Virus genome (UHGV): UHGV-1430915
DNA length: 64,000 nucleotides
Strand: one strand, 5' to 3'
Source of the DNA: a virus
Shown here: in pieces, positions 18,262 to 34,092 of the stretch
How positions within the stretch are numbered: position 1 is the stretch's first letter
How the letters are laid out: every line of letters starts with the position of its first letter
Position numbers and translations under genes: made by a program
Notes under the pieces: model-generated
Database searches by the model: none
The model's input: only the letters and a program-made list of their open reading frames with translations
What the model was told of the DNA's origin: nothing

Positions 18262-19628
18262 ACGTCCCCCTTTTCTGCTCTAGTTTCAAAATCTTTCCTG
18301 ACTTTCTCGTCTAAGCCAGGGAAAGTTGTATTATAAAACTCTACGACTCTCGGGTCAACAATAATATCCACCTCTCTTAATGGACGCAACAAGTTTATTC
18401 CTTGTATCGTCTTAACCCGACTCAAGGCAACATACGTCATTCCGGGAGAGAAAGCTCCGTTCTTTCCGAGGTCTAGGTTGTAACAATCTAACGTAAGTCC
18501 TTGACTTTTATGCGATGTTACTGCGTACCCAGATTTCAAAGGAAGTTGCTCATAAGACCCGATCACAACCCTCTCTATGAACTTCTCCATCTTCCTTTCG
18601 GCAATATTGTACCTCTGGGAAGGTTTGTACTCGTTATTCTCCCACAATCTTGGCTCAATTTCAACCTGTGTTCCGTCTTCTAGCTCAACTACTACGGATT
18701 TGGTCTTGAATTTTACCACTGTGGCACGTGTCCCGTTAACATAATACGGAACTTTGTGAGTAGGGTCAACATCGTTTGAGGTTATCATAACCTTCATCCC
18801 TATCTTCAGCCTCATTTCCTGCTCCACAGGTAGTGTGGAAGGGAACTTACCTTTCATTTTACCAATGTAGGTCTTCTCTGGGGCCTTGATGGCATCATAG
18901 AAACGTCTGTTCACCTCCTCTGCTTGCTTATTGGTGGCACAGATGGTCAAGGCATCTGTTGGGACACCACCATGATAGCAACGAGTGTTAAGCTCTGCTA
19001 CAACCTCTTTTATGCGACGACCTTCACGAACACAGTTCAACATTGTGGCGAAGCGAACAGATTCCTGACGGAACTGGTCTACTAAGGCTATGTTGTGAAG
19101 ATTAAGATCCTCCCAAGATTCTGTATAGCAACACAGGTCTGTGTGGTAGAAGTTGAAGTAGGCTTCTTTCTCCATAGAAGAGACAACTGGAGGTGCTTGG
19201 TAGAAATCTCCAAACAATAACACCTGAATGCCTCCGAAAGGTTTGTCATTTTTCCGAAGAAAGCGGAGTTTTCTATCCATCTCTATGAACTTGTCAGCAC
19301 GGATCATAGAGATTTCATCGATAATCAGGATGGTAAATGCCTTGCTTTTCAGAGGCTTTGCTGTTTTTGCCCTTATTGCTGTCCAGTCTGACTCCATGCT
19401 CACACCTGCGGCAAGATCGAAAGTTCGGTGCGCTGTTGCTCCATTAACGTTTAAAGCGGCTACCCCTGTCGGGGCAACCGTTATGCAAGAGTCTCCATAC
19501 ATGGACTGGATCATGTTGATAAGATATGTCTTCCCGGTTCCACCAGGTCCACTTACGAAGACATTCTCACCGCTCATGATTGCAACAAGGGCAGCATCTG
19601 TGCCTACATCGTACTGCCCTTTTTCCAT
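18258..19628 (-). CDS. SF1 DNA helicase, Dda/RecD/PIF1-like
   Basis: Walker A GPGGTGKT, Walker B IIDEISMI, C-terminal VTSHKSQG motif. Confidence 0.75.
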   Translation of the reverse strand: MEKGQYDVGTDAALVAIMSGENVFVSGPGGTGKTYLINMIQSMYGDSCITVAPTGVAALNVNGATAHRTFDLAAGVSMESDWTAIRAKTAKPLKSKAFTILIIDEISMIRADKFIEMDRKLRFLRKNDKPFGGIQVLLFGDFYQAPPVVSSMEKEAYFNFYHTDLCCYTESWEDLNLHNIALVDQFRQESVRFATMLNCVREGRRIKEVVAELNTRCYHGGVPTDALTICATNKQAEEVNRRFYDAIKAPEKTYIGKMKGKFPSTLPVEQEMRLKIGMKVMITSNDVDPTHKVPYYVNGTRATVVKFKTKSVVVELEDGTQVEIEPRLWENNEYKPSQRYNIAERKMEKFIERVVIGSYEQLPLKSGYAVTSHKSQGLTLDCYNLDLGKNGAFSPGMTYVALSRVKTIQGINLLRPLREVDIIVDPRVVEFYNTTFPGLDEKVRKDFETRAEKGDV

Positions 19629-20833
19629 TACGCCTCCTCGTAGATAATGTCGATAGTATTACCGTCGCGGTCAACCACGTACTCAATTGGGTCGCCATCT
19701 TTGCGCGATTCTGGAGCTACTACGATTTCGTAGCGGCATGCACGGCACTTGGCGCTGTTGTGTTGGTAAGGTACACTAACTACATCGGCAGGGTCAACCA
19801 TAACCGTCATCACAGTTCCGTAGCTCTTTGCATACTCTTTGCTGGCACAGTGCAGGCCATAAGAGCATGCAGCTTCCGGATCATCCTCTACAAAGTTACG
19901 AGGCATGGATACAAAAGCCCCCTGGTATTGTGGGACTTTACCACTGTGCCAATCCACCCACTTGTCGCCGTTAAACTGAACCCCTTTGTAGCAAATGATT
20001 CGACCATCTTCTGCAATCTGAATGTCGTTTGCCTGCATAAAATCGTAGAGCATGTTTACAGATTTTGCAGAAGGATTGCGTAGCAGGCGAACGAGGAATT
20101 TCACATAGCGGTCATCCAGTGTTCCGTCTGCATAATCTTTCTCAATTTTCTTTGCAATGGTGGATCGCATCTCTACACCGTAGTAGTAGAGCTTACCATC
20201 TTTCATGATCAGGTTGTCTGCAAGTGTGGTGAACTCATTCTTGCGTTCCAGCCAGACAAGGATTTCACCAATTGCCTCGTCATATTCCTGAACAGAGATA
20301 TGGTCGAAGACTTTCTGGTAAACTTCCTCACTTTCACTGCGGCGAATTTCAAAAATACCTTCGTTGCAGGTGATCTGGAGGAGTTCCCCGCAAATAACCA
20401 CCAAAGGCTCGATGCTTCGGGTCTGTTGCTGAGACACACTGCTCACCACCTCCAGCACCGGGTCTTTTACTTCTACTAAAGGTTCTTCTGACTTGATTGC
20501 TACCCCAGTGAACCCTACACCGTGAACAACACACAGTGGATATACCACACCCCAACGTTTAACGGAACCTTCTCCTAAATCTAAGATCATGGCGTACTTA
20601 CCGTTATCTTCCAGCCCATATCGAAATAAACGGGCCTCTTCACGGGTTTCAAAATCCTCACGGGTGTAGCAGACGCTGTCACGGTCAGGATCGAACAACT
20701 CTGGGGCACCTACTGCCAGTGTCCAGGTTGTGTTACCTTTCTCAATAGCGCATGTGAAACCCTTCTTCTCAAGCTCTGCACGGCGGTCACGTGCTTCTTT
20801 ACGAGTTTTGAAATGTTCGTAGATGAAAATCAT
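19628..20833 (-). CDS. hypothetical protein; possible rIIB-like partner of the upstream GHKL ATPase
   Basis: Sits immediately downstream of the rIIA-like gene; start moved to ATG at 20833 (SD AAGGAGA); no diagnostic motif seen. Confidence 0.4.
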   Translation of the reverse strand: MIFIYEHFKTRKEARDRRAELEKKGFTCAIEKGNTTWTLAVGAPELFDPDRDSVCYTREDFETREEARLFRYGLEDNGKYAMILDLGEGSVKRWGVVYPLCVVHGVGFTGVAIKSEEPLVEVKDPVLEVVSSVSQQQTRSIEPLVVICGELLQITCNEGIFEIRRSESEEVYQKVFDHISVQEYDEAIGEILVWLERKNEFTTLADNLIMKDGKLYYYGVEMRSTIAKKIEKDYADGTLDDRYVKFLVRLLRNPSAKSVNMLYDFMQANDIQIAEDGRIICYKGVQFNGDKWVDWHSGKVPQYQGAFVSMPRNFVEDDPEAACSYGLHCASKEYAKSYGTVMTVMVDPADVVSVPYQHNSAKCRACRYEIVVAPESRKDGDPIEYVVDRDGNTIDIIYEEA

Positions 20834-20843
20834 CTTGGTCTCC

Positions 20844-22826
20844 TTATTTGATGTTATTCTTTGTATCAATCAGTTCACGGTATTCAATCATAGCAGGAGT
20901 GTCCCAATATTTCAAGCCTACATGCTTCAAAAGTGGATATTTCTTTTCCAATCTTGCAATATAGGCCTTCCCGCACTTAACCCGGTTGGCGATTAAGATT
21001 TTGGCACGATGATTTAGCTCACCGTACTTCCACGTGGTGCTACCTTCCCACTTGTGGAAATGTGGCCGATAACTTCCAAAATCCTGCATGGGGATAATTT
21101 TACCTAACTGTCTGTACAGGCTGTCATATGAAGTTTCATTTGCTGCGCGAGTTAGTAAGAATTTCCAAGCATCCTCTTTCAACAAATGTTCCACATTCTT
21201 CTCTGTAACATATTGGCAATCAGGATCAGTCCAAAGCAGACGAGATTCCGACACCAGGTACAGATCTTCCCCTTCAGGAATCTGGAGTGCCGCACGCACA
21301 CGGTCATAATCTTGCTGGTAGATGTTGCTCATCTGCCCTAGCCAACAACTTCCGCGTTGGATATCCCCCTCATACGGTATGCAGTGCTTAATCTTCCTGA
21401 ACTCTGCCTTAGTAATACGCTCACGCCGGAAGTAACCATCCTTCTCAAGTTTTTTAACCCAATAGCCTGGTTCGTAACGGGTTTTGGTTTCACCTTTCTT
21501 CGTAGGTCGGCGTGGAAGCTCCGATAACAATTTGACCGTATCTGCAAAAAACGGATGGTGTGCCGCCTCTTTAAACTCTTTCACCAGATCCGTGTTACGG
21601 CAATAGAAAACGTTGCGTCCGGTAATCTCGCTTAAGTAGTTACACTTATTCCGGTTATATTTGCCGTCTCCGTCGTTAAATACTAAATAAACTCCCCGTA
21701 AGAATTCTACCTTTCCGTAGCAGGCGTAACCTATGCGGCCTTTATTTAAGCCGCCAGCGAAGATCTCGCAGTCCCCCAAATTTCCTAGCCCTGTTTCTTC
21801 CCAGCGGTCATACATAAAATTCTTACCGAAGATGTGCCCGAACACTCCACTGTTCTTCATCATCTCGCGTGCTTCTGAGGATGTTTTTGCTGTCTCCAGT
21901 TCTGCAACAACTTCTGCTCCACGAAGGCGAATGCCTTCTTTGACAAAAGCTTCCAAACGCTCTTGGAATCCACCATCGTCGTGACCTTCTATGGTCCATT
22001 CACGCCCTGGGTTAATATTGCAATCTCCGATAGGGATCTCTACACAAATTGCAGGATAATCTATTAGTGTCTCCAGGAACTTAGAACGGTAAGGTTGGTG
22101 ACCCATTACCACACGACTCTCGTCAGAGCTGGTATAACCCTTCAGGATGGTCATCTTCCAACCATCTTTTTCATAATAATACTGCGCCTCTACTTTGTCT
22201 CCCTCCAGCATCTTGCTCGTCATCGGGTCGGTGACAGTGAACGGAAATTTTGCATAGCGCAGGCATGATGCAATAGCGGTGCGATATTTCAGAACATGCT
22301 CTTTCTTAACATGAAACTGAACTTTTACCCCGTTGTGCTCTTCAGTCTTCCGCTCACGGATCTTGGTGACATTTGGGATACCCTGGTCCAAGAACAATAG
22401 GTATGTGCTTTCCACACCGTTGTGCACACTGATTACATCGAAAGTGTCCACCATGCTGAACGGGGCCTTTGAACCAACACCTTTATTGCCTACCAGAGCG
22501 TTGCTGTTGCGCTTGGTCGACTCACCGAGGTTCATGAAAGTGTTACGGACCATCTCTTCTGACATGCCTAATCCAACGTCCTGCACAAAGAAGTATGGTT
22601 CAAGGTCTGTAGGAGAGTGAATGATGATCGGTACATCACCTCGTCCAGACTCAACATGTGAGTCCACAGCATTGAAGATCGGTTCACGGCAGCTTGCCAG
22701 TACCTTATCTTCATAAATCCCTTTGATGATTAGCCCAAAAGTCTCTTTGTTCAGAGAAATTGATCCCCTGGTTACCTCCATATTCCCAGTTAGCACCGCT
22801 TTAGTTTCATTGCTGTTTACAATCAT
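20844..22826 (-). CDS. rIIA-like protein with N-terminal GHKL (histidine-kinase-like) ATPase domain
   Basis: N-box REPIFNAVDS, G1 box VQDVGLGM, G2 box GNKGVGSKAPF in the first ~130 aa; size and a downstream partner gene fit the rIIA/rIIB arrangement. Confidence 0.5.
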   Translation of the reverse strand: MIVNSNETKAVLTGNMEVTRGSISLNKETFGLIIKGIYEDKVLASCREPIFNAVDSHVESGRGDVPIIIHSPTDLEPYFFVQDVGLGMSEEMVRNTFMNLGESTKRNSNALVGNKGVGSKAPFSMVDTFDVISVHNGVESTYLLFLDQGIPNVTKIRERKTEEHNGVKVQFHVKKEHVLKYRTAIASCLRYAKFPFTVTDPMTSKMLEGDKVEAQYYYEKDGWKMTILKGYTSSDESRVVMGHQPYRSKFLETLIDYPAICVEIPIGDCNINPGREWTIEGHDDGGFQERLEAFVKEGIRLRGAEVVAELETAKTSSEAREMMKNSGVFGHIFGKNFMYDRWEETGLGNLGDCEIFAGGLNKGRIGYACYGKVEFLRGVYLVFNDGDGKYNRNKCNYLSEITGRNVFYCRNTDLVKEFKEAAHHPFFADTVKLLSELPRRPTKKGETKTRYEPGYWVKKLEKDGYFRRERITKAEFRKIKHCIPYEGDIQRGSCWLGQMSNIYQQDYDRVRAALQIPEGEDLYLVSESRLLWTDPDCQYVTEKNVEHLLKEDAWKFLLTRAANETSYDSLYRQLGKIIPMQDFGSYRPHFHKWEGSTTWKYGELNHRAKILIANRVKCGKAYIARLEKKYPLLKHVGLKYWDTPAMIEYRELIDTKNNIK

Positions 22827-23323
22827 TTATTGCGCTCCTTGTAGTAGATATGGCTCCCGAATTGAGCTGTCCTCTGCATCTTTTTTGCCCATTTCGGTCG
22901 TACTTTTGTTGTATGGTAGTGTGTTGCTCCGCCTGTTATATCCATAGCCATGTATGCAACATGGTTGTTATTATAGACCTTTAGAAGCATCTTTGCAAGA
23001 CTTTTAGCGTGATCCCATGAATCTTTTTCTGTCACCTTAAAAGTTTTGCCGTGGTTTGTCCACGAAAACTGGTTAGGTTGGTAGACAATCTTTCTTATAG
23101 TATCTGGGTATTTGGGGTGGGATTTCCTGTTTAGTGTGGCAAATCCGGATGCCAGCATACCCATCGTGCCATCCCCTCTAGCCTCCCTGTAGATATTGCA
23201 TGCTAGAATGTTTTCCTTAGTATCCGACGGCTTGCAAGTGTGATATACTTTTTGTTTTGGTGCTGCAACAACAGGCAGCGATAAAAATGCGCTCAAAATA
23301 ATAGCAAAGATTTTAATTTTCAC
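22823..23323 (-). CDS. secreted cell-wall hydrolase, SleB/CwlJ (Hydrolase_2) family; endolysin candidate
   Basis: Signal peptide MKIKIFAIILSAFLSLPVVAAP; catalytic-region motif NIYREARGDG...ATLNRK (EARG[DE] ... LNR). Confidence 0.65.
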   Translation of the reverse strand: MKIKIFAIILSAFLSLPVVAAPKQKVYHTCKPSDTKENILACNIYREARGDGTMGMLASGFATLNRKSHPKYPDTIRKIVYQPNQFSWTNHGKTFKVTEKDSWDHAKSLAKMLLKVYNNNHVAYMAMDITGGATHYHTTKVRPKWAKKMQRTAQFGSHIYYKERNK

Positions 23324-23334
23324 AATAGCTCCAA

Positions 23335-23360
23335 ATAGAAAATCCCCGCCGAAGCGGGGT
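23335..23360 (-). terminator. rho-independent terminator (minus strand), UUCG-loop family
   Basis: CCCCGC-UUCG-GCGGGG hairpin on the minus transcript followed by AUUUUCUAUUU. Confidence 0.55.
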
Positions 23361-23762: not shown

Positions 23763-24947
23763 TCAAGCTTTAGCTAAAATGGCGCTAAACTCTTCACCAA
23801 ACTCTTTTACAATCTTCATCAGGTTTGGGTATGCTTTGATCAGCTGAGCAACGATCTTGTCCCTGCCTTTACCAATAAGTAAGGCATTTCCTAAGGCGTT
23901 AGGTTTCATCATCGCCATAAAGACTGAGAATACAAAGTCTCGGTTCTCATCCTTGAAATTTTCCCAAAGGAAATCAAGGAAGTTTGCCACACAGCTGACG
24001 AGATCTTCGTCGGAGATACTTGCATTTTCCATCATATTACGAATAGCGATACAACCTTCAGACCCCAGAATCCACAAGATGTCTGGCTGCTTAGGACCTA
24101 CATATTCTTTGCAGCCTCCTGCCATAATCCGACCGATTTCTGGCAAGTTTCGTTTCTTGGTGTGGTAGGTCCAAATTTCTACCGCTGCAGTGTGACCAAT
24201 TGCACCTTGTAGAAGGACACGGGCCATAGCGTCAGAAATAATACCGCTGTCAAAATCGTGCAGGATGTCAGATGCAGCAACCCAAGATCGCGGTGTAGCA
24301 AAAGATGGACAATTAATCTCAGCCATGGCCTCATAATTATCGATGGCTGATGGGACTCTTTTCAGATATCCAATTACCGAGGAGTGCACCCCATTAAGGA
24401 ATGCATAGTCCTCAATAAACACCTCTGCACTGCTTGTAACTTCTACAATGATAAAGCGGTTAGCTAGAGGAGCTTCGAGCGCCGAAAGAACAGCACCGTC
24501 TGTAGCACGGTTACCTGCAGCTACAAAAACAGAGCCCTTAGGAAATGCATAGGTGCCGCACTTGTGGTCGAGCATAATTTGCATTGCAACCTTCTGCAGG
24601 TAGTTATCTGCATGAGTAAGCTCATCTAGAAAGATAATTCCGCTCCAGTCCGGATCTGCAGGCCAAAATTCTGGAATTGCAAACACTGTGCGTGTAGTCC
24701 CATCCGACTCTACAGGGATAGGTAGCCCAGATAAGTCAGCAGGATCTTTATCTGACAACCGCACGTCAACCAGGTTGTCATCTCGCTCACCGAACATATT
24801 ATCAGCAATCTGCTTCATCACCTGGCTCTTCCCCACGCCCATCGGTCCTAAAATCAGGACAGATCGGTTATGACGCTGGGCAAATTGAATAATAGCTGGC
24901 AACTCGCGGACAGTGATTTGACCACTTTCGAATACGTTTCTTGACAT
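23763..24947 (-). CDS. MoxR/CobS-type AAA+ ATPase (AAA_5)
   Basis: Walker A ILGPMGVGKS, Walker B IIFLDELTHAD, sensor region AAGNRATDG; 394 aa. Confidence 0.7.
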   Translation of the reverse strand: MSRNVFESGQITVRELPAIIQFAQRHNRSVLILGPMGVGKSQVMKQIADNMFGERDDNLVDVRLSDKDPADLSGLPIPVESDGTTRTVFAIPEFWPADPDWSGIIFLDELTHADNYLQKVAMQIMLDHKCGTYAFPKGSVFVAAGNRATDGAVLSALEAPLANRFIIVEVTSSAEVFIEDYAFLNGVHSSVIGYLKRVPSAIDNYEAMAEINCPSFATPRSWVAASDILHDFDSGIISDAMARVLLQGAIGHTAAVEIWTYHTKKRNLPEIGRIMAGGCKEYVGPKQPDILWILGSEGCIAIRNMMENASISDEDLVSCVANFLDFLWENFKDENRDFVFSVFMAMMKPNALGNALLIGKGRDKIVAQLIKAYPNLMKIVKEFGEEFSAILAKA

Positions 24948-27444: not shown

Positions 27445-27526
27445 GATTAGGTGCTCCTGTGTTCGTTTTCTTTCGAATGGGTGCACTATATCGTGGATTT
27501 AGAGTAAAGTCAACACGTTTTTGAGG

Positions 27527-27555
27527 TTGACATCTTCCCAAGCACTTGATAAGAT
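27527..27555 (+). promoter_or_regulatory. sigma70-like promoter, rightward (TTGACA-17-TAAGAT) at the divergent strand switch
   Basis: TTGACA at 27527-27532, 17-nt spacer, TAAGAT at 27550-27555. Confidence 0.55.
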
Positions 27556-27586
27556 TTCTCCACCTACAGAGCACAAGAGACAACTC

Positions 27587-28576
27587 ATGAATCTTGAAAA
27601 ATATTATACACCAGAAGAGTTAGAGCGCCTGCTCAAAAAATATAGACGCAAACAGAATAATGCACGGAAACGAGATATAGAGTTCAACCTGTCATGGGAA
27701 GAATACCTCCTATTTGGTAAAAAACTTTTAGGAGATGGGGTATGCGACTATACCCTTATACCTTTCGACATGCACACAGATGAAAACGGACTGGGAAATC
27801 CTTTCTACCCATCTCTAGAGCGGATAGATGATGAAGGTCCTTATGCGGTTGATAACTGCTGTGTGGTGGGATTGAGATGCAACTCTCTAAAGGACTGTCT
27901 GGTAGATAAAAAGACCGCAGTCTTGATTAAAGACAAAACTGATCGAAAAATTGTCCAGCAGATGATGCTCCACCTGAGCGAAGAGCGCATGGAGAAATTG
28001 AAAGGTGATTACACTTTTGAAGATTTCATCTTGCAATATGGGACGGAAGAGGATAAACTGGCACTCTTTGACGAAGAATGGGAGGAAGATATGTCACCAA
28101 TGCAGGATTTTAAAAACTTCATGGCTAATCGTGGAGCCAACAAGCACATTTCTGACATCGTAAATGAGCCTATAACAGAAGAGATTGAAGAAATGATGCA
28201 ACAGGATCACGAAGAGGAAAAAGAGCCTCAAGGGGGCGAAGAAGAGCTTACAGAAGAGGTTCCTGCACTGCCTGACGATGTTGAGATTGCCAAAGCTTAC
28301 ACTTTCTATTGCCAGACGTTCTACGATGCGGGTATGAAAGTTGATTTGTCATTCAGCCAGTTTAAGAGCACATACATCCGAAAATGTTGTGCTTTAACTG
28401 GTGAGCGTCTCGGGGTCGGACTTAAACCACTATTAGTGACCGACTGGAATAAAGGTTTCACCAAGGGTAACTTTATGGTAGTATCTCCAATTATGGAGAA
28501 GGCTATGACAGACCTTATGAAGACAACTCGCATGACAATGACCGAGTTGGCTGGTATTTTCAAGCACGTTAAATAA
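27587..28576 (+). CDS. hypothetical protein with a degenerate His-Me/HNH-like cysteine-rich segment
   Basis: Start set at ATG 27587 (MNLEKYY...); segment GDGVCDYT...SLERIDDEGPYAVDNCCVVGLRCNSLKDC resembles an HNH/EndoVII zinc-finger spacing but lacks the catalytic His. Confidence 0.4.
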   Translation: MNLEKYYTPEELERLLKKYRRKQNNARKRDIEFNLSWEEYLLFGKKLLGDGVCDYTLIPFDMHTDENGLGNPFYPSLERIDDEGPYAVDNCCVVGLRCNSLKDCLVDKKTAVLIKDKTDRKIVQQMMLHLSEERMEKLKGDYTFEDFILQYGTEEDKLALFDEEWEEDMSPMQDFKNFMANRGANKHISDIVNEPITEEIEEMMQQDHEEEKEPQGGEEELTEEVPALPDDVEIAKAYTFYCQTFYDAGMKVDLSFSQFKSTYIRKCCALTGERLGVGLKPLLVTDWNKGFTKGNFMVVSPIMEKAMTDLMKTTRMTMTELAGIFKHVK

Positions 28577-28588
28577 TGACAGGGGCCA

Positions 28589-30070
28589 ATGGCCCCTTCT
28601 GGAGTTTTAATGGATAGCAGAAGTTCAGAAATCATTGCCGCACAAAAAGATGACGCCTTGCGAATGCTGCAGGCAGCACGCATGTATCTTCTTGAAAAGC
28701 TGCCGTTTTATGGCACACTGTTGTCAGGGTTGCAGTTCGTAGAAAACCACACATGGTGCTCCACTATGGCAACAGACCATAAACGCATCTACTACAGCCC
28801 TGAGTTCATTATGGGGTTGGCAGATGAGCGTAAAACCATTCTTAAAGCATCTCTGACTGACAAGCAGTTTGAGATGGCTGAGGTTTTCTATTCCCCAAAA
28901 TCTGTGAAAGAGGTGGCCTTTCTTCTGTCACATGAGGTGGGGCATATTATCTGTGATCATCTGGTCCGTGGTAAAAGCTTTGAGCCGGAACTGTTCAATA
29001 TTGCTTGTGATCACGTTATCAACACAGGTCTTGTGGTTGACTTTAGCAAGCCTCCTTGTGTTTTCTTCCCGAAGGGGAAAAGTACTGAGTTCGTAAAAGG
29101 TAAGCCTTTTGGCTTCTTAGCTAGTTGCTACTGTGACATGAGGTTCCATGGATGGATTGCTGAGAACGTTTATGCAGTTCTTGATAAGCAAAGAGATCAG
29201 AATAGCGGTAAAAGTAAGAACGGTAAAGGAGAGAACTCTCAAGGAGATAAACGACAAACCGATGATCACATGAGTGGGAACGGTGGAACTAGTGATGATC
29301 TTGGAAAGGCTATGGGGTATGATCAGCCACAGCCAGTGATCAGTCAATCTGATAAAGATCAAGCCATGCAGGACTCTGGTGACATGTTGGAAGCAGCAAT
29401 GCAAGCTTCCGGAGGTCGTTGCCCAGAGGCGGTGCGTGAGTTTGTCAAGAACAGAGGTAAGCCTGTAATCAATTATATAGACATCATTAAGCAACGTATG
29501 TTGTCCAAACGAAAGGCTGAACTAACCTACAGAAAACCTGGTCGCCGATCTGGGTCTTTGACCAGCACAATGCGAAAAGTTGGGGCTATAAAAAAGAATC
29601 AGCACGTTGTTGTTCCTGGTCGTAATCCGGAAAACACTATAGATATTGTGGTGGCTTTAGACGTTTCTGGGTCGATCTCACAAAGAACTTTAAAGAAAAT
29701 GTTCAATGAGATCACTGGGTTGTGCAATCTATATAAAGAGTTCAAGGTTACGATGTTCTGCTGGTCAACCGAGGTTGGAGAGGTTAAAGTATACACTCGT
29801 GGGAACATCGACGAGATGATCAACTATGAGGTCCACTCAACATGGGGCACAACAGCCGCTTGCGTGTTCAAGTATCTGGACGCTAACATACCAAATGCAA
29901 AAGATGTCATCGTCCTGACCGACCTATACTTTGAGCATAACTTTGAACAAAAGGCTGTTGACAACAAGTGGAAAAAGTACGATACTTTATGGGTTCTCAC
30001 CGAAGGGTATAATAAAAATTATATCCCAAGCTTTGGGAAAACTGTAGAATTGATCGAGTACGCTAAATAA
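28589..30070 (+). CDS. VWA-domain protein with N-terminal putative metallopeptidase (HExxH) domain; DUF2201/CobT-like, typical MoxR partner
   Basis: HEVGH zinc-binding motif; MIDAS motif VVALDVSGSIS. Confidence 0.65.
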   Translation: MAPSGVLMDSRSSEIIAAQKDDALRMLQAARMYLLEKLPFYGTLLSGLQFVENHTWCSTMATDHKRIYYSPEFIMGLADERKTILKASLTDKQFEMAEVFYSPKSVKEVAFLLSHEVGHIICDHLVRGKSFEPELFNIACDHVINTGLVVDFSKPPCVFFPKGKSTEFVKGKPFGFLASCYCDMRFHGWIAENVYAVLDKQRDQNSGKSKNGKGENSQGDKRQTDDHMSGNGGTSDDLGKAMGYDQPQPVISQSDKDQAMQDSGDMLEAAMQASGGRCPEAVREFVKNRGKPVINYIDIIKQRMLSKRKAELTYRKPGRRSGSLTSTMRKVGAIKKNQHVVVPGRNPENTIDIVVALDVSGSISQRTLKKMFNEITGLCNLYKEFKVTMFCWSTEVGEVKVYTRGNIDEMINYEVHSTWGTTAACVFKYLDANIPNAKDVIVLTDLYFEHNFEQKAVDNKWKKYDTLWVLTEGYNKNYIPSFGKTVELIEYAK

Positions 30071-30085
30071 GAGAGGATGTTATTT

Positions 30086-30346
30086 ATGGCAACAGAAGTA
30101 GTAATTAAAGCTGAACGCCCAGTTAAAAAAGCTATCAACACGTTTCCTGTAGGGACCATTGTGAGCATGATTACAGAGTCAGGTCGTGTATCTACACTGC
30201 TGATCGTGAAATCTGCATGCTCATCTTGTGTGTGGGCATATGATCTTGACGAGAAAGAACTGAAAGATTTTGTTGGAGAGCTGAAAGCAACAGAGCTTGA
30301 CGCTCGTATCGAAGTGTTTGGTGAAACTATGGAGGAAGAACAATGA
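30086..30346 (+). CDS. small protein, member 1 of a plus-strand tandem paralog trio
   Basis: Start at second ATG (30086, 9 nt after SD GAGAGGA); shares AE(R)P...F.(V/C)G(T/E)(I/V)V ... pattern with the next two genes. Confidence 0.45.
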   Translation: MATEVVIKAERPVKKAINTFPVGTIVSMITESGRVSTLLIVKSACSSCVWAYDLDEKELKDFVGELKATELDARIEVFGETMEEEQ

Positions 30347-30606
30347 CCACAAAAATAACCATTGCAGAACCGAAAGCTAACACGCAGCCTATCGAAAAGT
30401 TTAAATGCGGTGAGGTGGTAACATTCACACCTGACAATGAAGATGCTAAGATTTTCGCCATGGTCACAGCCGAGTGGATGTGTGACAACACCACACAGGT
30501 TCTGCGTTTTGACACCTATCTTACAGATGAAATCAGGAACGATAAGATCGTGACTGGTGTGGATACTGAGATTATTTTCTACAAGAGCTTTTTAGAAGGT
30601 TTCTGA
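30343..30606 (+). CDS. small protein, member 2 of the plus-strand paralog trio
   Basis: ORF track; ATGA overlap with the upstream gene. Confidence 0.45.
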   Translation: MTTKITIAEPKANTQPIEKFKCGEVVTFTPDNEDAKIFAMVTAEWMCDNTTQVLRFDTYLTDEIRNDKIVTGVDTEIIFYKSFLEGF

Positions 30607-30607
30607 T

Positions 30608-30841
30608 ATGGCGAAAATTCGTAAATTATCCAGCAATCAGGTTGTGAAAGACTTTGAATCTGGAGAGATTCTGTATGTTCGTGATGCAGATGACGAAGGT
30701 GAAGATCTTGTTATGCTAGTAGGACACGCTGAAGACGGATGCATCCAAGCCGTTTTTCTTGAAACAGCCATGGTGCACTGGATAGAGCTGGACCTGAAAG
30801 CACGAAAACCTAAAGCAGAAATCCTGATTTACGAAGATTAA
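30608..30841 (+). CDS. small protein, member 3 of the plus-strand paralog trio
   Basis: ORF track; FESGEILYVRDADDEGEDLVMLVG matches the family pattern. Confidence 0.45.
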   Translation: MAKIRKLSSNQVVKDFESGEILYVRDADDEGEDLVMLVGHAEDGCIQAVFLETAMVHWIELDLKARKPKAEILIYED

Positions 30842-30857
30842 CAAAAAGGAGAGAGCC

Positions 30858-31307
30858 GTGTTGAGCAAACGTGAATGCGACAGCATTAGCCTGAATTCTT
30901 ATAAGAAACAATGGTTTGGGGTGGAAGTTTGCCGACTGCGGCTAGGCTCCTACCTGAACTTCGTTTATTATGAGAGTGATAGTCGTATTGTTTCTTATGA
31001 AGTGTTCTACACCAAGAACACCTTCGAACTGCGCCGTAAAGTGGATGGTGGGAGAACTACCCCCCAGAATAATTGGGAAACTATCCTACCTACGGATGTT
31101 ATAGGAAGTCCCCTGAATGTATCTGAAGATGAAAATCTTATGGTTCATGCTATGATGGGACTTGACAGCTTAGAGCTGGCGATCTATGATATGTCCATCG
31201 AAGCAGTTAAGCTGGACTACATCGAAAACACTTTAGAGGAAGGTATCAAGAAGTTCCTCAGTGAGAAATTAAAAGACCACTTTCATAAGGAGCTATACCT
31301 GTTATGA
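30858..31307 (+). CDS. hypothetical protein (149 aa)
   Basis: ORF track. Confidence 0.5.
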   Translation: MLSKRECDSISLNSYKKQWFGVEVCRLRLGSYLNFVYYESDSRIVSYEVFYTKNTFELRRKVDGGRTTPQNNWETILPTDVIGSPLNVSEDENLMVHAMMGLDSLELAIYDMSIEAVKLDYIENTLEEGIKKFLSEKLKDHFHKELYLL

Positions 31308-31549
31308 AGACCCGTAAAGAACGTAACAAAATTTTACCTGGAGCTCTCGAACACCTGATGAAGTGCAGATCTATTTGGCACTCTGCCAAGGAAGGGCAGA
31401 AGGTGGTTGTGGTTAGTGACAATACCAACCCGTTTGGAGATTATACCACTATGATGGCTCCATATGTCCGTGATGGCGTTGTGGAAGTTGTCCCTTACAA
31501 TGGTCTGCATGAACGGCACTTTGAAAGCACTTTACTGGTGGAGCTATAG
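31304..31549 (+). CDS. hypothetical protein (81 aa)
   Basis: ORF track; ATGA overlap. Confidence 0.45.
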   Translation: MKTRKERNKILPGALEHLMKCRSIWHSAKEGQKVVVVSDNTNPFGDYTTMMAPYVRDGVVEVVPYNGLHERHFESTLLVEL

Positions 31550-31551
31550 TC

Positions 31552-32118
31552 ATGGCGGTCAATGTGGCTTACAACACAGGAAAGCTTGACAGAGACATTG
31601 GGTGTCTTGTCCTTTCAGATACAGAAGAGTATTGGGGTTATGGGTTGCTGTCAGACCCACACCCGAGCAACCTTGTATCAACAGTGCTATACCGCTACGA
31701 CCCTGTGCCAACGGTACACGACAAAGACATTCACGACCTTCGGATCAAGTGCCTAGAAGATCTGCTGGACAATGGTTGCAACGATCTGCGGGTAGCCAGG
31801 GAGAAGCTTACAAATATTCACAAAGAGGAAGTGATGAGCACTCTCAATAAGAGATCAGTGCACAAAAAGATGATGCTGAATTTTGCAATGGGTATCTACA
31901 TGGATGGGTATAAGGGAGGTGATCCGATTCTCAAGCTTCGCTGCCCAACACTGTGGGAAAGGGTGGTTGACAGCAAGGACGGTGCTGCCCTGCTTGAGCT
32001 ACACACTGCAGGTTGGATATGGCGGTATGTTGATGGATACCCTTTATGGGCATGTGGGCCTGGGGAATTTGTTGACAGGCCTAGTGCGGTGGTGGACTTG
32101 CTATTGCAGTTTGAATAA
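31552..32118 (+). CDS. hypothetical protein (188 aa)
   Basis: ORF track. Confidence 0.5.
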   Translation: MAVNVAYNTGKLDRDIGCLVLSDTEEYWGYGLLSDPHPSNLVSTVLYRYDPVPTVHDKDIHDLRIKCLEDLLDNGCNDLRVAREKLTNIHKEEVMSTLNKRSVHKKMMLNFAMGIYMDGYKGGDPILKLRCPTLWERVVDSKDGAALLELHTAGWIWRYVDGYPLWACGPGEFVDRPSAVVDLLLQFE

Positions 32119-32173
32119 AAGTGGGATATAAGGTGTTCATGCACCTACCAACAATACAACAAGAGAGACTGAA

Positions 32174-32449
32174 ATGACGAAAGAAGAAGCTGACGTATTA
32201 GATTTTGCACTGGAGGCTACGCAAGAGGCTCTGGTGTTAGCTTGGAAAATGAACCAGCGTGCTGCAGAATGCAACCGCCGAATCAATGAGATTCTAGGCA
32301 TGTCTATGTATGATTTCACTATGCATGCTGGAGAGATTCCTGAATTAACTGCAGAGATGAATGATCTTGACAATAAGATTAATATCATTCTGAAGACAGC
32401 AGAAACAACTCACCAAACCGCCCGTAAATTTATCAACGAGAAGGTGTGA
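32174..32449 (+). CDS. hypothetical protein (91 aa)
   Basis: ORF track. Confidence 0.45.
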   Translation: MTKEEADVLDFALEATQEALVLAWKMNQRAAECNRRINEILGMSMYDFTMHAGEIPELTAEMNDLDNKINIILKTAETTHQTARKFINEKV

Positions 32450-32916
32450 ATATGGACTACAGCTACTGCGGGGAAGAAGTTCCTTTTAATTACGGCAATC
32501 TTACCACGAGCAATCCATATGAGACTCGCCACGGCACGCACATCATTGCCATCGACTTTGATGGAACGTTTAATGCGAGCCCTTTCATCTTCTCCCGCCT
32601 GATCAGGGATCTGAAGAAGGAGGGGTGGACAGTCTACCTTGTGACTTTCCGATTCATTACTCAAGACAATGTAGACATTGAGTATTGGCGCAAGGAGCTC
32701 GATGTTGGTGTGTTCTACACAGGCGGTGTGCAGAAGGCAGCCTACTTGGCGCAGTTTGATATCTACCCAGATATCTGGATTGATGATTCTCCGGCATGTA
32801 TTCCGGCTAAGAATCAGTTAGAGTTTGCAATGAAGGAGATCGAGTATAAGTCTGCGGCTAAGCGGAACGGATGGCCCTTTATTATTGAAGATTACCCAGA
32901 TCCTGAACCGGAGTAA
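32446..32916 (+). CDS. HAD-superfamily phosphatase-like protein (possible 5'-nucleotidase/polynucleotide phosphatase)
   Basis: Motif I IAIDFDGTF (DxDGT), motif II LVTFR, Lys in GGVQKAAY, motif IV IWIDDSP. Confidence 0.45.
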   Translation: MNMDYSYCGEEVPFNYGNLTTSNPYETRHGTHIIAIDFDGTFNASPFIFSRLIRDLKKEGWTVYLVTFRFITQDNVDIEYWRKELDVGVFYTGGVQKAAYLAQFDIYPDIWIDDSPACIPAKNQLEFAMKEIEYKSAAKRNGWPFIIEDYPDPEPE

Positions 32917-32920
32917 GAGC

Positions 32921-33091
32921 CATGAGGCGAAGATATCATTACCTGATGTGGAAGTTATATCAAAATGCTGCCAAAGCCTATCATATCATGTTTGGCAATG
33001 ACGATCACTACATCATGTTACATCTCACCGCTATTGAGCATCACAATGAGTGGATTCATGCAATCGTGGCAGGTGATAAAGACTTTAAGTA
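32921..33091 (+). CDS. candidate small ORF (56 aa, MRRRYHYLMWKLYQNAAKAYHIMF...)
   Basis: Fills the gap between neighbouring plus-strand genes, GGAG upstream; below the ORF-track cutoff. Confidence 0.25.
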
Positions 33092-33142
33092 AAATATACC
33101 TCAAAAACGTATAGTGCGGCTTTCTAGATGGAGACTGATTAA

Positions 33143-33523
33143 ATGTGCAAGTGTAAATCCTACAATTGGAAAGTGAAAGGTGCCAAGCACCAAAATGTTA
33201 TCGTTGATGTGCCTAAAAAGCTCCGTGACGGCAAAAAACGTGTGTGCCTTGATAAGTGCATGGCTAAGCCTGTCATGAGTCTATGGGCGGCGGGATTGAA
33301 AACTCTAAACTGCTGCTGTGGTCATAACAAAGATGTTCCAAGTATCATTATCCCAGAAGATGCAGACCCTAAAGCTTATGCCAAAATACTGACCCGCTAC
33401 CCCAGCACCTTCCTGATCGGAAAATGGTGTCACGATGAACTTCAATGGTGGGTAGCATACGGTAGTATAGGTACTGCTTTTGGCTTCCCAGCTTTGTCAG
33501 AGCGCTATGTCAAAGTGTCATAA
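33143..33523 (+). CDS. hypothetical cysteine-rich protein (126 aa)
   Basis: ORF track; clusters CKCK, CLDKC, CCCGH suggest metal binding. Confidence 0.45.
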   Translation: MCKCKSYNWKVKGAKHQNVIVDVPKKLRDGKKRVCLDKCMAKPVMSLWAAGLKTLNCCCGHNKDVPSIIIPEDADPKAYAKILTRYPSTFLIGKWCHDELQWWVAYGSIGTAFGFPALSERYVKVS

Positions 33524-33627
33524 TAGAATTTAAGGCCTCAAACGAGGCCTGTGCCTTCATAAATTTCCCCACCCTGTGCGATTGCCTTCCTGAATAAAAT
33601 ACCCTCTCAGATCTCTTAAAATTAAGC

Positions 33628-33656
33628 TTGACACCAACACCAGATCTATATATAAT
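33628..33656 (+). promoter_or_regulatory. perfect-consensus sigma70 promoter, rightward (TTGACA-17-TATAAT)
   Basis: TTGACA at 33628-33633, 17-nt spacer, TATAAT at 33651-33656, after a hairpin AGGCCTCAAACGAGGCCT at 33533-33550. Confidence 0.65.
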
Positions 33657-33684
33657 TCTCACCAACCAAACAGAGGAGATCGTC

Positions 33685-34092
33685 ATGGATAATCTTGCAG
33701 ATGTAAATGTCGAAATTGTTAAACTAAAGTTCTTGGGCTTTCGAGACCCTTATTCTTTAACAGCCATACTAATGGATACTCACTTCACACCAGGTAAAGA
33801 GTACACTGCCTTCCGTTATATTTGCGGAGATCACGAATCGGCTTATAGTGTGAATACAAACCTCGGCGAGGGATATTTCATCAGAGATATCACAGATCAC
33901 TTGTGGGGTATGTGGGAGTTGGTGGGGGAAGAGAATAAATCCCTTCCTAAAGAGATTTGGGTGCACACCTTCCACACAGGCAAGTTTGGAGGTACGGAAC
34001 ATAAGTCTATCCACTATGATGAAGAAAGTGCCATCAAGCAACAAGCTGTGCTTGGTGGATCTGTAGAAAAATTTGTTAAATGCGAGGACTGA
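33685..34092 (+). CDS. hypothetical protein (135 aa from MDNLADVNVE...)
   Basis: Start moved to ATG at 33685 (SD GAGGAG) downstream of the 33628-33656 promoter; the track ORF start at 33628 would overlap the promoter. Confidence 0.5.
   Translation: MDNLADVNVEIVKLKFLGFRDPYSLTAILMDTHFTPGKEYTAFRYICGDHESAYSVNTNLGEGYFIRDITDHLWGMWELVGEENKSLPKEIWVHTFHTGKFGGTEHKSIHYDEESAIKQQAVLGGSVEKFVKCED

Follow-up and report, generated by a model that had tools for sequence, protein, structure and literature searches.

A probable anti-exclusion rIIA/rIIB gene pair with a GHL-type ATPase module in an rV5-like phage

The UHGV virus genome UHGV-1430915, analysed here as one stretch of 64,000 nucleotides (nt) and called the window hereafter, encodes two adjacent proteins that, judged from their sequences, belong with near certainty to the rIIA and rIIB families. 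The initial annotation had placed two open reading frames (ORFs) of 660 and about 400 amino acids (aa) at 19628-22826 without stating their strand, and these limits held, with both genes on the minus strand (Table 1). It had also likened them to the rIIA/rIIB pair and proposed a profile search against the two families. In this search, the 660-aa protein matched PHROG 612 'RIIA' along its entire length (E 2e-123), and residues 144-385 of the 401-aa protein matched PHROG 609 'RIIB' (E 1.5e-61). The rIIA and rIIB proteins of phage T4 (AF158101) were assigned to the same two PHROGs. With BLASTP, rIIA residues 1-190 aligned to T4 rIIA at 28% identity (E 4e-21) and rIIB residues 172-371 to T4 residues 107-304 at 37% identity (E 4e-39), and comparison of profiles by hhalign joined rIIA 1-306 to T4 1-304 (probability 99.9%, E 5.8e-37) and rIIB about 145-368 to T4 87-306 (E 1.1e-33). 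The likeness to the rII pair was therefore borne out by both families, by the alignments to T4 and by gene order, and the smaller protein, which had been described as of unknown type, is an rIIB homologue.

The T4 rIIA and rIIB proteins, named 'protector from prophage-induced early lysis' and known to counter lambda RexAB, share both families, gene order and orientation with the window pair; in either phage, rIIA immediately precedes rIIB and is read in the same direction. The window rIIA is 65 aa shorter than that of T4, whereas the window rIIB is 89 aa longer. Pairwise comparison of the C-terminal ~350 aa of rIIA with T4 gave no significant similarity, and this part is linked to the family through the rIIA PHROG profile only (residues 310-660, E 2.3e-19). 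The neighbouring genes also differ, with a SleB-like hydrolase and a Pif1-like helicase in the window and topoisomerase genes in T4. The phage itself is an rV5-like myovirus rather than a T-even.

NCBIfam returned only sub-threshold GHKL-type matches for rIIA and none for rIIB, the PADLOC defence models gave no meaningful match, and a sequence search of the PDB found no relative of either protein, the best matches being TRAP1 and an influenza matrix protein at E about 0.1. All rIIB homologues from P0001 to P0120 carry the precomputed Pfam assignment PF26926, and a dedicated Pfam family for the rIIB core seems to exist under this accession. One of these homologues, P0005 (498 aa), is 100% identical over 55% of the query, is joined to TPR-repeat domains and comes from a single 3.3-kb contig; it may be a chimeric assembly. 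A domain common to rIIA and rIIB was also considered and rejected, as BLASTP between the two proteins gave no match.

The mechanical ORF list gives rIIB as 413 aa from a TTG start at 20869. Translation almost certainly begins with the ATG of position 20833, which yields the 401-aa protein, because AGGAG stands 6 nt before it and the same start is used in the GenBank coding sequences (CDS) of phages ECP26, EdH4, Bas55 and Bas57. This Shine-Dalgarno sequence lies in the 10-nt gap between rIIA and rIIB and overlaps the final base of the rIIA stop codon (20844..20846), and the Pif1/Dda-like helicase gene, which comes next downstream, has its start overlapping the stop of rIIB (TAATG). The codon differences from EdH4 fall mostly on third positions, 149 being synonymous and 21 non-synonymous in rIIA, and 70 and 12, respectively, in rIIB. 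Both are real genes under purifying selection. The rIIA coding sequence contains two 6-nt homopolymers, at 21450..21455 and 21546..21551 (T6 and A6 on the plus strand), and rIIB has no run of six. An A6 run in T4 rIIA has been described as a reversible frameshift 'contingency locus' (preprint 10.1101/2025.10.21.683753).

Table 1. Features of the rII locus and its surroundings, in window coordinates
Feature	Coordinates	Strand	Remarks
rIIA, 660 aa	20844..22826	-	ATG start; PHROG 612, BLASTP, hhalign, EdH4 identity
GHKL (Bergerat-fold) ATP-binding domain, rIIA residues 1-190	22257..22826	-	
N-box, rIIA	22662..22685	-	E48-PIF-N52-AV-D55
G1, rIIA	22566..22580	-	D83-V-G-L-G87
G2, rIIA	22473..22490	-	G113-NK-G-V-G118
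Transducer-like second domain, rIIA residues about 191-306	21909..22256	-	as in GyrB/ParE, MutL, Hsp90-middle, MORC
rIIA-specific alpha/beta C-terminal body, residues 307-660	20844..21908	-	confident model, no recognised domain
rIIB Shine-Dalgarno AGGAG	20840..20844	-	read from sequence; 6-nt spacer to ATG
rIIB, 401 aa	19628..20833	-	PHROG 609, BLASTP, hhalign, BFVD folds, EdH4 identity
Tandem beta-alpha-beta-beta modules, rIIB residues 1-100 (3-42 and 56-99)	20534..20833	-	weakly SPOR-like
Linker, rIIB residues about 100-142	20408..20533	-	predicted local distance difference test (pLDDT) about 25; variable length and sequence; predicted disordered
Conserved alpha/beta core, rIIB residues 143-375	19709..20407	-	common with T4 rIIB 87-306
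Pif1/Dda-like helicase, 456 aa	18258..19628	-	one intact ORF
SleB/CwlJ-like cell-wall hydrolase, 166 aa	22823..23323	-	GTG start; Pfam Hydrolase_2, E 2e-19
GC-rich hairpin CCCCGCTTCGGCGGGG followed by a T-run	23344..23359	-	intrinsic-terminator-like; EdH4 terminator annotated at the same place
MoxR-like AAA ATPase, 394 aa, two genes upstream of rIIA	23763..24947	-	PHROG 1297, E 2e-110

The N-box, G1 and G2 motifs that the initial annotation had recognised at the N-terminus of rIIA stand in canonical order and spacing, and Pfam HATPase_c_3 scored 34.9 bits on the protein against a cut-off of 25. The T4 rIIA counterparts, E47..D54, D81..G85 and G117..G122, are identical and in register with those of the window protein. 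In an alignment of 23 homologues with identity down to 20%, all nine key GHKL residues were invariant. An AlphaFold2 model of rIIA built from the 23-sequence alignment (mean pLDDT 83) showed a second domain of ~110 residues directly after the ATP-binding domain. This domain is a GHL-type transducer, homologous to the corresponding part of T4 rIIA, and contains an invariant motif, NPG-R275-E276-W, in the same 23 homologues, of which R275-E276 is a candidate gamma-phosphate sensor by analogy. A Bergerat domain followed by a transducer of the ribosomal-S5-domain-2-like type, the two-domain arrangement that marks GHL and MORC ATPases, is thus present in rIIA. The earlier statement that the remaining ~500 aa hold no recognised domain stands with respect to Pfam, but not for residues about 191-306, which form the transducer domain, nor for residues 310-660 in so far as they match the PHROG profile.

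The nearest structural relatives of the N-terminal module of rIIA are mostly DNA-manipulating proteins, namely ParE, T6 topoisomerase II, Topo VI-B, MORC2/3, SMCHD1 and MutL, and the top single match is the chaperone Hsp90/TRAP1. Sequence identity to Hsp90/TRAP1, GyrB/ParE, Topo VI-B, MutL, MORC and SMCHD1 is only 10-15%. In contrast with these GHL and MORC ATPases, rIIA has no Toprim, endonuclease, CW or client-binding domain, and its C-terminal 350 aa are unrelated to theirs. DNA or client binding finds no support here. Structure searches with residues 307-660 found no solved relative.

The rIIB model reached a pLDDT of 73 overall and of about 90 over residues 220-400. Against BFVD, a database of predicted viral structures, all 31 significant fold matches were rIIB or unnamed phage proteins, spanning T4-like, N4-like, Pseudomonas, Aeromonas, Caulobacter, Vibrio and other phages. 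Among solved structures, the core had no relative. Each of the two N-terminal modules bears the signature F-x-[ST]-R-x-[ED]-A-R ... R-W, which is invariant in three rIIB lineages whose overall identity is only 36-50%. The two ~40-aa repeats resemble the two halves of the SPOR domain, the peptidoglycan-binding domain of FtsN, RlpA and CwlC, and the NCBI pipeline labels one rIIB ortholog 'SPOR domain-containing protein'. Pfam SPOR (PF05036), with a cut-off of 21, scored 19.2 bits on the whole protein and 23.5 bits on the N-terminus alone. The whole-protein score lies below the cut-off, and the modules are described only as weakly SPOR-like. A simple hydropathy test revealed no signal-like N-terminus of the kind expected of an extracytoplasmic SPOR protein. 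By hydropathy, no convincing transmembrane segment was present in rIIA, rIIB or the T4 pair, the highest 19-residue Kyte-Doolittle mean of rIIB being 1.69 at residues 95-113, within a non-conserved segment of low model confidence. Since rIIB has neither a signal peptide nor a membrane anchor, a classical peptidoglycan-binding role is unlikely.

The N-terminus of T4 rIIB is of another kind, as its residues 7-50 match several helix-turn-helix (HTH) families and also a PHROG named 'DNA binding domain', whereas the N-terminus of the window rIIB matched no HTH family and has the beta-alpha-beta-beta modules at that place. The proteins of BFVD matches 1-30 range from 265 to 1049 aa, and rIIB N-termini vary widely; the absence of an HTH therefore does not exclude membership in the family, and the HTH is apparently a feature of T4 and not one that defines rIIB. 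Both lineages counter RexAB, and with modules in one and an HTH in the other, the N-terminal domain of rIIB has been exchanged between them.

The PHROG 609 profile is 1055 positions long, with its N-terminal ~310 positions matching rIIA and its C-terminal part rIIB, and BFVD entry Q56C47 from Escherichia phage RB43 is a 1049-aa protein named 'RIIA-RIIB membrane-associated'. The window rIIA also matches PHROG 609 'RIIB' (E 1e-23), likely because this PHROG holds natural rIIA-rIIB fusions; such a match can mislead automatic annotation. A natural fusion protein exists, the adjacency of the two genes is conserved, and the stop of rIIA overlaps the ribosome-binding site of rIIB; on these grounds, a physical complex of the two proteins is probable.

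By nucleotide identity, the phage of the window is a Vequintavirus, that is, an rV5-like myophage of E. coli. A 4.4-kb stretch around the rII locus agrees with Escherichia phage B9-1 at 99.9% identity and with over 100 other rV5-like members of the genus at 91-99.6%. Over the full length of the locus, the group of rV5 (DQ832317), EdH4, ECP26, Bas55 and Bas57 shows 91-99.9% identity to the window, with the common gene order MoxR ATPase, hypothetical protein, hydrolase, rIIA, rIIB and helicase; the rII pairs of this group are orthologs of the window pair and exhibit no difference of substance. EdH4 (MK327930) has a locus collinear with the one described here, at a nucleotide identity of 91.7%. 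Protein identity to the window pair is 96.8% for the RIIA of EdH4 and 97.0% for its RIIB, and none of the 21 and 12 amino acid substitutions, respectively, falls in the GHKL motifs.

The pair is already annotated as rIIA/rIIB in dozens of GenBank records, including most of these rV5-like relatives, under product names such as 'protector', 'lysis inhibitor' and 'membrane integrity protector'. In rV5 and many relatives the genome numbering begins at rIIA, a convention copied from T4. Sixteen 'Campylobacter phage' records (MG0656xx, e.g. MG065655 and MG065662), with Campylobacter jejuni as the stated host, carry the full rII locus at 92-93% identity within rV5-like genomes of 135-143 kb. The host labels of these records look doubtful, or the phages look like co-isolated coliphages.

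After the terminator-like hairpin follow four tightly packed genes, namely the hydrolase, rIIA, rIIB and the helicase, and the hairpin, which lies just upstream of this block, probably closes the preceding transcription unit. The hydrolase has a signal-peptide-like N-terminus (MKIKIFAIILSAFLSLPVVAAP) and its stop codon overlaps the rIIA start (ATGA), but it is a neighbour and not a member of the rII pair. In ECP26 (L001 5261..6629), the helicase is split into two CDS annotated 'helicase' and 'ATP-dependent RecD-like DNA helicase', which suggests a frameshift or a sequencing error in that record. By synteny, the MoxR-like ATPase corresponds to the 'MoxR ATPase' of Bas55 and Bas57 (bas55_0062, bas57_0062). 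In Bas54, the MoxR ATPase bas54_0063 is needed to overcome the predicted defence system DS-28, according to the HIDEN-SEQ preprint (10.1101/2025.11.20.689424). Based on synteny and numbering, the window gene is probably an ortholog of bas54_0063, so that the surroundings of the rII pair may form a small anti-defence neighbourhood.

The hydrolase gene contains a match to the promoter consensus (22998..22970), as does rIIA close to its end (20915..20887). With 24 such matches in the region against 16.4 +/- 3.9 in shuffled sequence, the excess is only modest and permits no conclusion. A tRNA scan of the window found none. From about 27500 to 34000, the GC and AT skews become positive and long ORFs lie on the plus strand (27521..28576, 28589..30070 and others), so this part is a divergently transcribed block; its counterparts in ECP26 are annotated 'anti-sigma factor'.

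As to function, Adler et al. (Nat Microbiol 2025, PMC11879866) describe the knockdown of RIIA or RIIB in T4, MM02, EdH4, SUSP1 and N4. The knockdowns had no effect on Rex-free E. coli and lowered the efficiency of plating in the presence of lambda RexAB. In HIDEN-SEQ, T4 rII insertions were non-essential without RexAB, which confirmed the T4 phenotype independently. A phenotype conditional on RexAB is thus common to T4 and to the EdH4 pair, which is 97% identical to that of the window, and the exclusion-plating experiment proposed in the initial annotation has essentially been published, in substance and by way of EdH4, in PMC11879866. By analogy with EdH4, the window pair very probably counters RexAB exclusion.

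Lambda RexAB is an abortive-infection system that depolarises the membrane. Because its catalytic motifs do not vary even among homologues of only 20% identity, rIIA would be an active ATPase of the GHL/MORC type, composed of a Bergerat domain and a transducer, and like Hsp90, GyrB/ParE, MutL and MORC it is probably an ATP-driven dimerising clamp or switch. It would act in complex with rIIB, whose conserved C-terminal core would serve as partner or effector. The N-terminus of rIIB, which is specific to the lineage, SPOR-like here and HTH in T4, may set localisation or target specificity, and the variable C-terminus of rIIA would supply targeting together with it. The complex would keep Rex-type systems from firing or from collapsing the membrane potential. 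Two candidate routes can be envisaged, the masking of a nucleoprotein trigger sensed by RexA, which the kinship of the ATPase module with DNA enzymes favours, or, in the historical view, an action on RexB or the membrane. Taken alone, this clamp-and-complex mechanism is tentative, and we would put it somewhat short of an even chance. An extension of it would make the rIIB N-terminus a swappable targeting module, with tandem SPOR-like repeats in Vequintavirinae and related phages and an HTH in T4, that picks the defence or the site together with the rIIA C-terminus, with targets beyond lambda RexAB and with the GHL head and the rIIB core as a generic engine; this is rather unlikely. A literature search found no mechanistic or structural paper on the rII proteins, and recent papers on the module, including PMC11879866, call it 'widespread yet poorly understood'.

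Several points weigh against the anti-Rex role and its mechanism. The functional phenotype comes from EdH4 and not from the phage of the window, and the EdH4 result is taken from the text and figure legend of PMC11879866 as a reduction in plating and not as an effect size for each phage. BASEL found the target range of RexAB to be very narrow and questioned its primary role in defence, so that Rex may not be the natural or the only target. ATPase activity, dimerisation and the rIIA-rIIB complex are inferred only, and the effector step is a guess because no structural or functional analogue exists for the core of rIIB or for the last ~350 aa of rIIA. As transmembrane segments and signal peptides are missing from both proteins, membrane association rests on older T4 biochemistry.

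An action at the level of DNA would assign the same parts differently, with rIIA as a topoisomerase-, MutL- or MORC-like clamp and rIIB as a DNA-binding adaptor or transcription factor, so that the nucleoprotein that triggers RexA is hidden or remodelled. Most close structural relatives of the rIIA module are indeed DNA-manipulating GHL and MORC ATPases, the N-terminus of T4 rIIB has its HTH and 'DNA binding domain' matches, and Iyer et al. 2021 count rIIB among phage transcription factors. The pair moreover abuts the Pif1/Dda-like helicase in a block of replication genes, as the T4 pair neighbours topoisomerase genes. However, the best single structural match is the chaperone Hsp90/TRAP1 and no DNA enzyme, and Pfam, NCBIfam and structure searches were negative for Toprim, nuclease and further DNA-processing domains. 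An HTH is missing from the Vequintavirus rIIB, yet the EdH4 ortholog counters RexAB (PMC11879866), and the HTH is therefore not needed for the anti-Rex function. We consider an action on DNA improbable as a whole.

The product name 'lysis inhibitor' goes back to the r (rapid lysis) plaques of early phage work. Lysis timing, lysis inhibition or general membrane integrity could be taken as the primary role, with the anti-Rex effect as a side effect, and the PHROG category 'lysis', names such as 'RIIA lysis inhibitor' and the rapid lysis of E. coli B by T4 rIIA mutants point in this direction, as do the secreted SleB-like hydrolase that lies directly upstream and overlaps rIIA and the weak similarity of the rIIB N-terminus to peptidoglycan-binding SPOR domains. 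Nevertheless, the 'lysis inhibitor' label is only inherited from the old plaque phenotype, and without a signal peptide or a transmembrane segment rIIB could not reach peptidoglycan by the usual route. Knockdown in five phages, EdH4 included, was harmless on Rex-free hosts (PMC11879866), and the T4 rII insertions of HIDEN-SEQ were likewise non-essential without RexAB. A primary role in lysis is very improbable in view of these results.

The anti-Rex role may also be only one face of a genuine rII homologue whose natural targets are other defences, either Rex-like prophage systems or others reached by way of the rIIB N-terminus, with lambda RexAB as a laboratory cross-reaction. PMC11879866 itself poses this question, the narrow range of RexAB in BASEL fits it, and HIDEN-SEQ, which set clinical E. 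coli isolates against K-12, highlighted the RIIA/RIIB orthologs of Bas37. From lineage to lineage, the N-terminal domain of rIIB and the C-terminus of rIIA are entirely different, and the neighbouring MoxR-like ATPase is probably an ortholog of the Bas54 anti-defence gene. This reading would be compatible with the anti-Rex role, which it extends rather than replaces. We regard it as possible but doubtful.

Taken all together, the locus is a known rIIA/rIIB pair with nothing novel in its identity or its anti-Rex role, and the discovery value is small, as dozens of public genomes already carry this annotation and the role against Rex was tested in a near-identical phage. Mildly new, and descriptive only, are the complete GHL module of rIIA and the composition of rIIB from a core without a known fold and a tandem, weakly SPOR-like N-terminus that takes the place of the T4 HTH. 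To our knowledge, the biochemistry of rII is still unexplained seventy years after Benzer, and we know of no structure of rIIA or rIIB. The GHKL-plus-transducer module of rIIA, the core fold of rIIB and the lineage-specific rIIB N-terminus provide handles for mutagenesis and domain swaps. Furthermore, rIIB has been reported as a trigger of bacterial CARD/gasdermin systems (PMC10312443), and divergent rIIB variants would therefore be useful probes of what is sensed.

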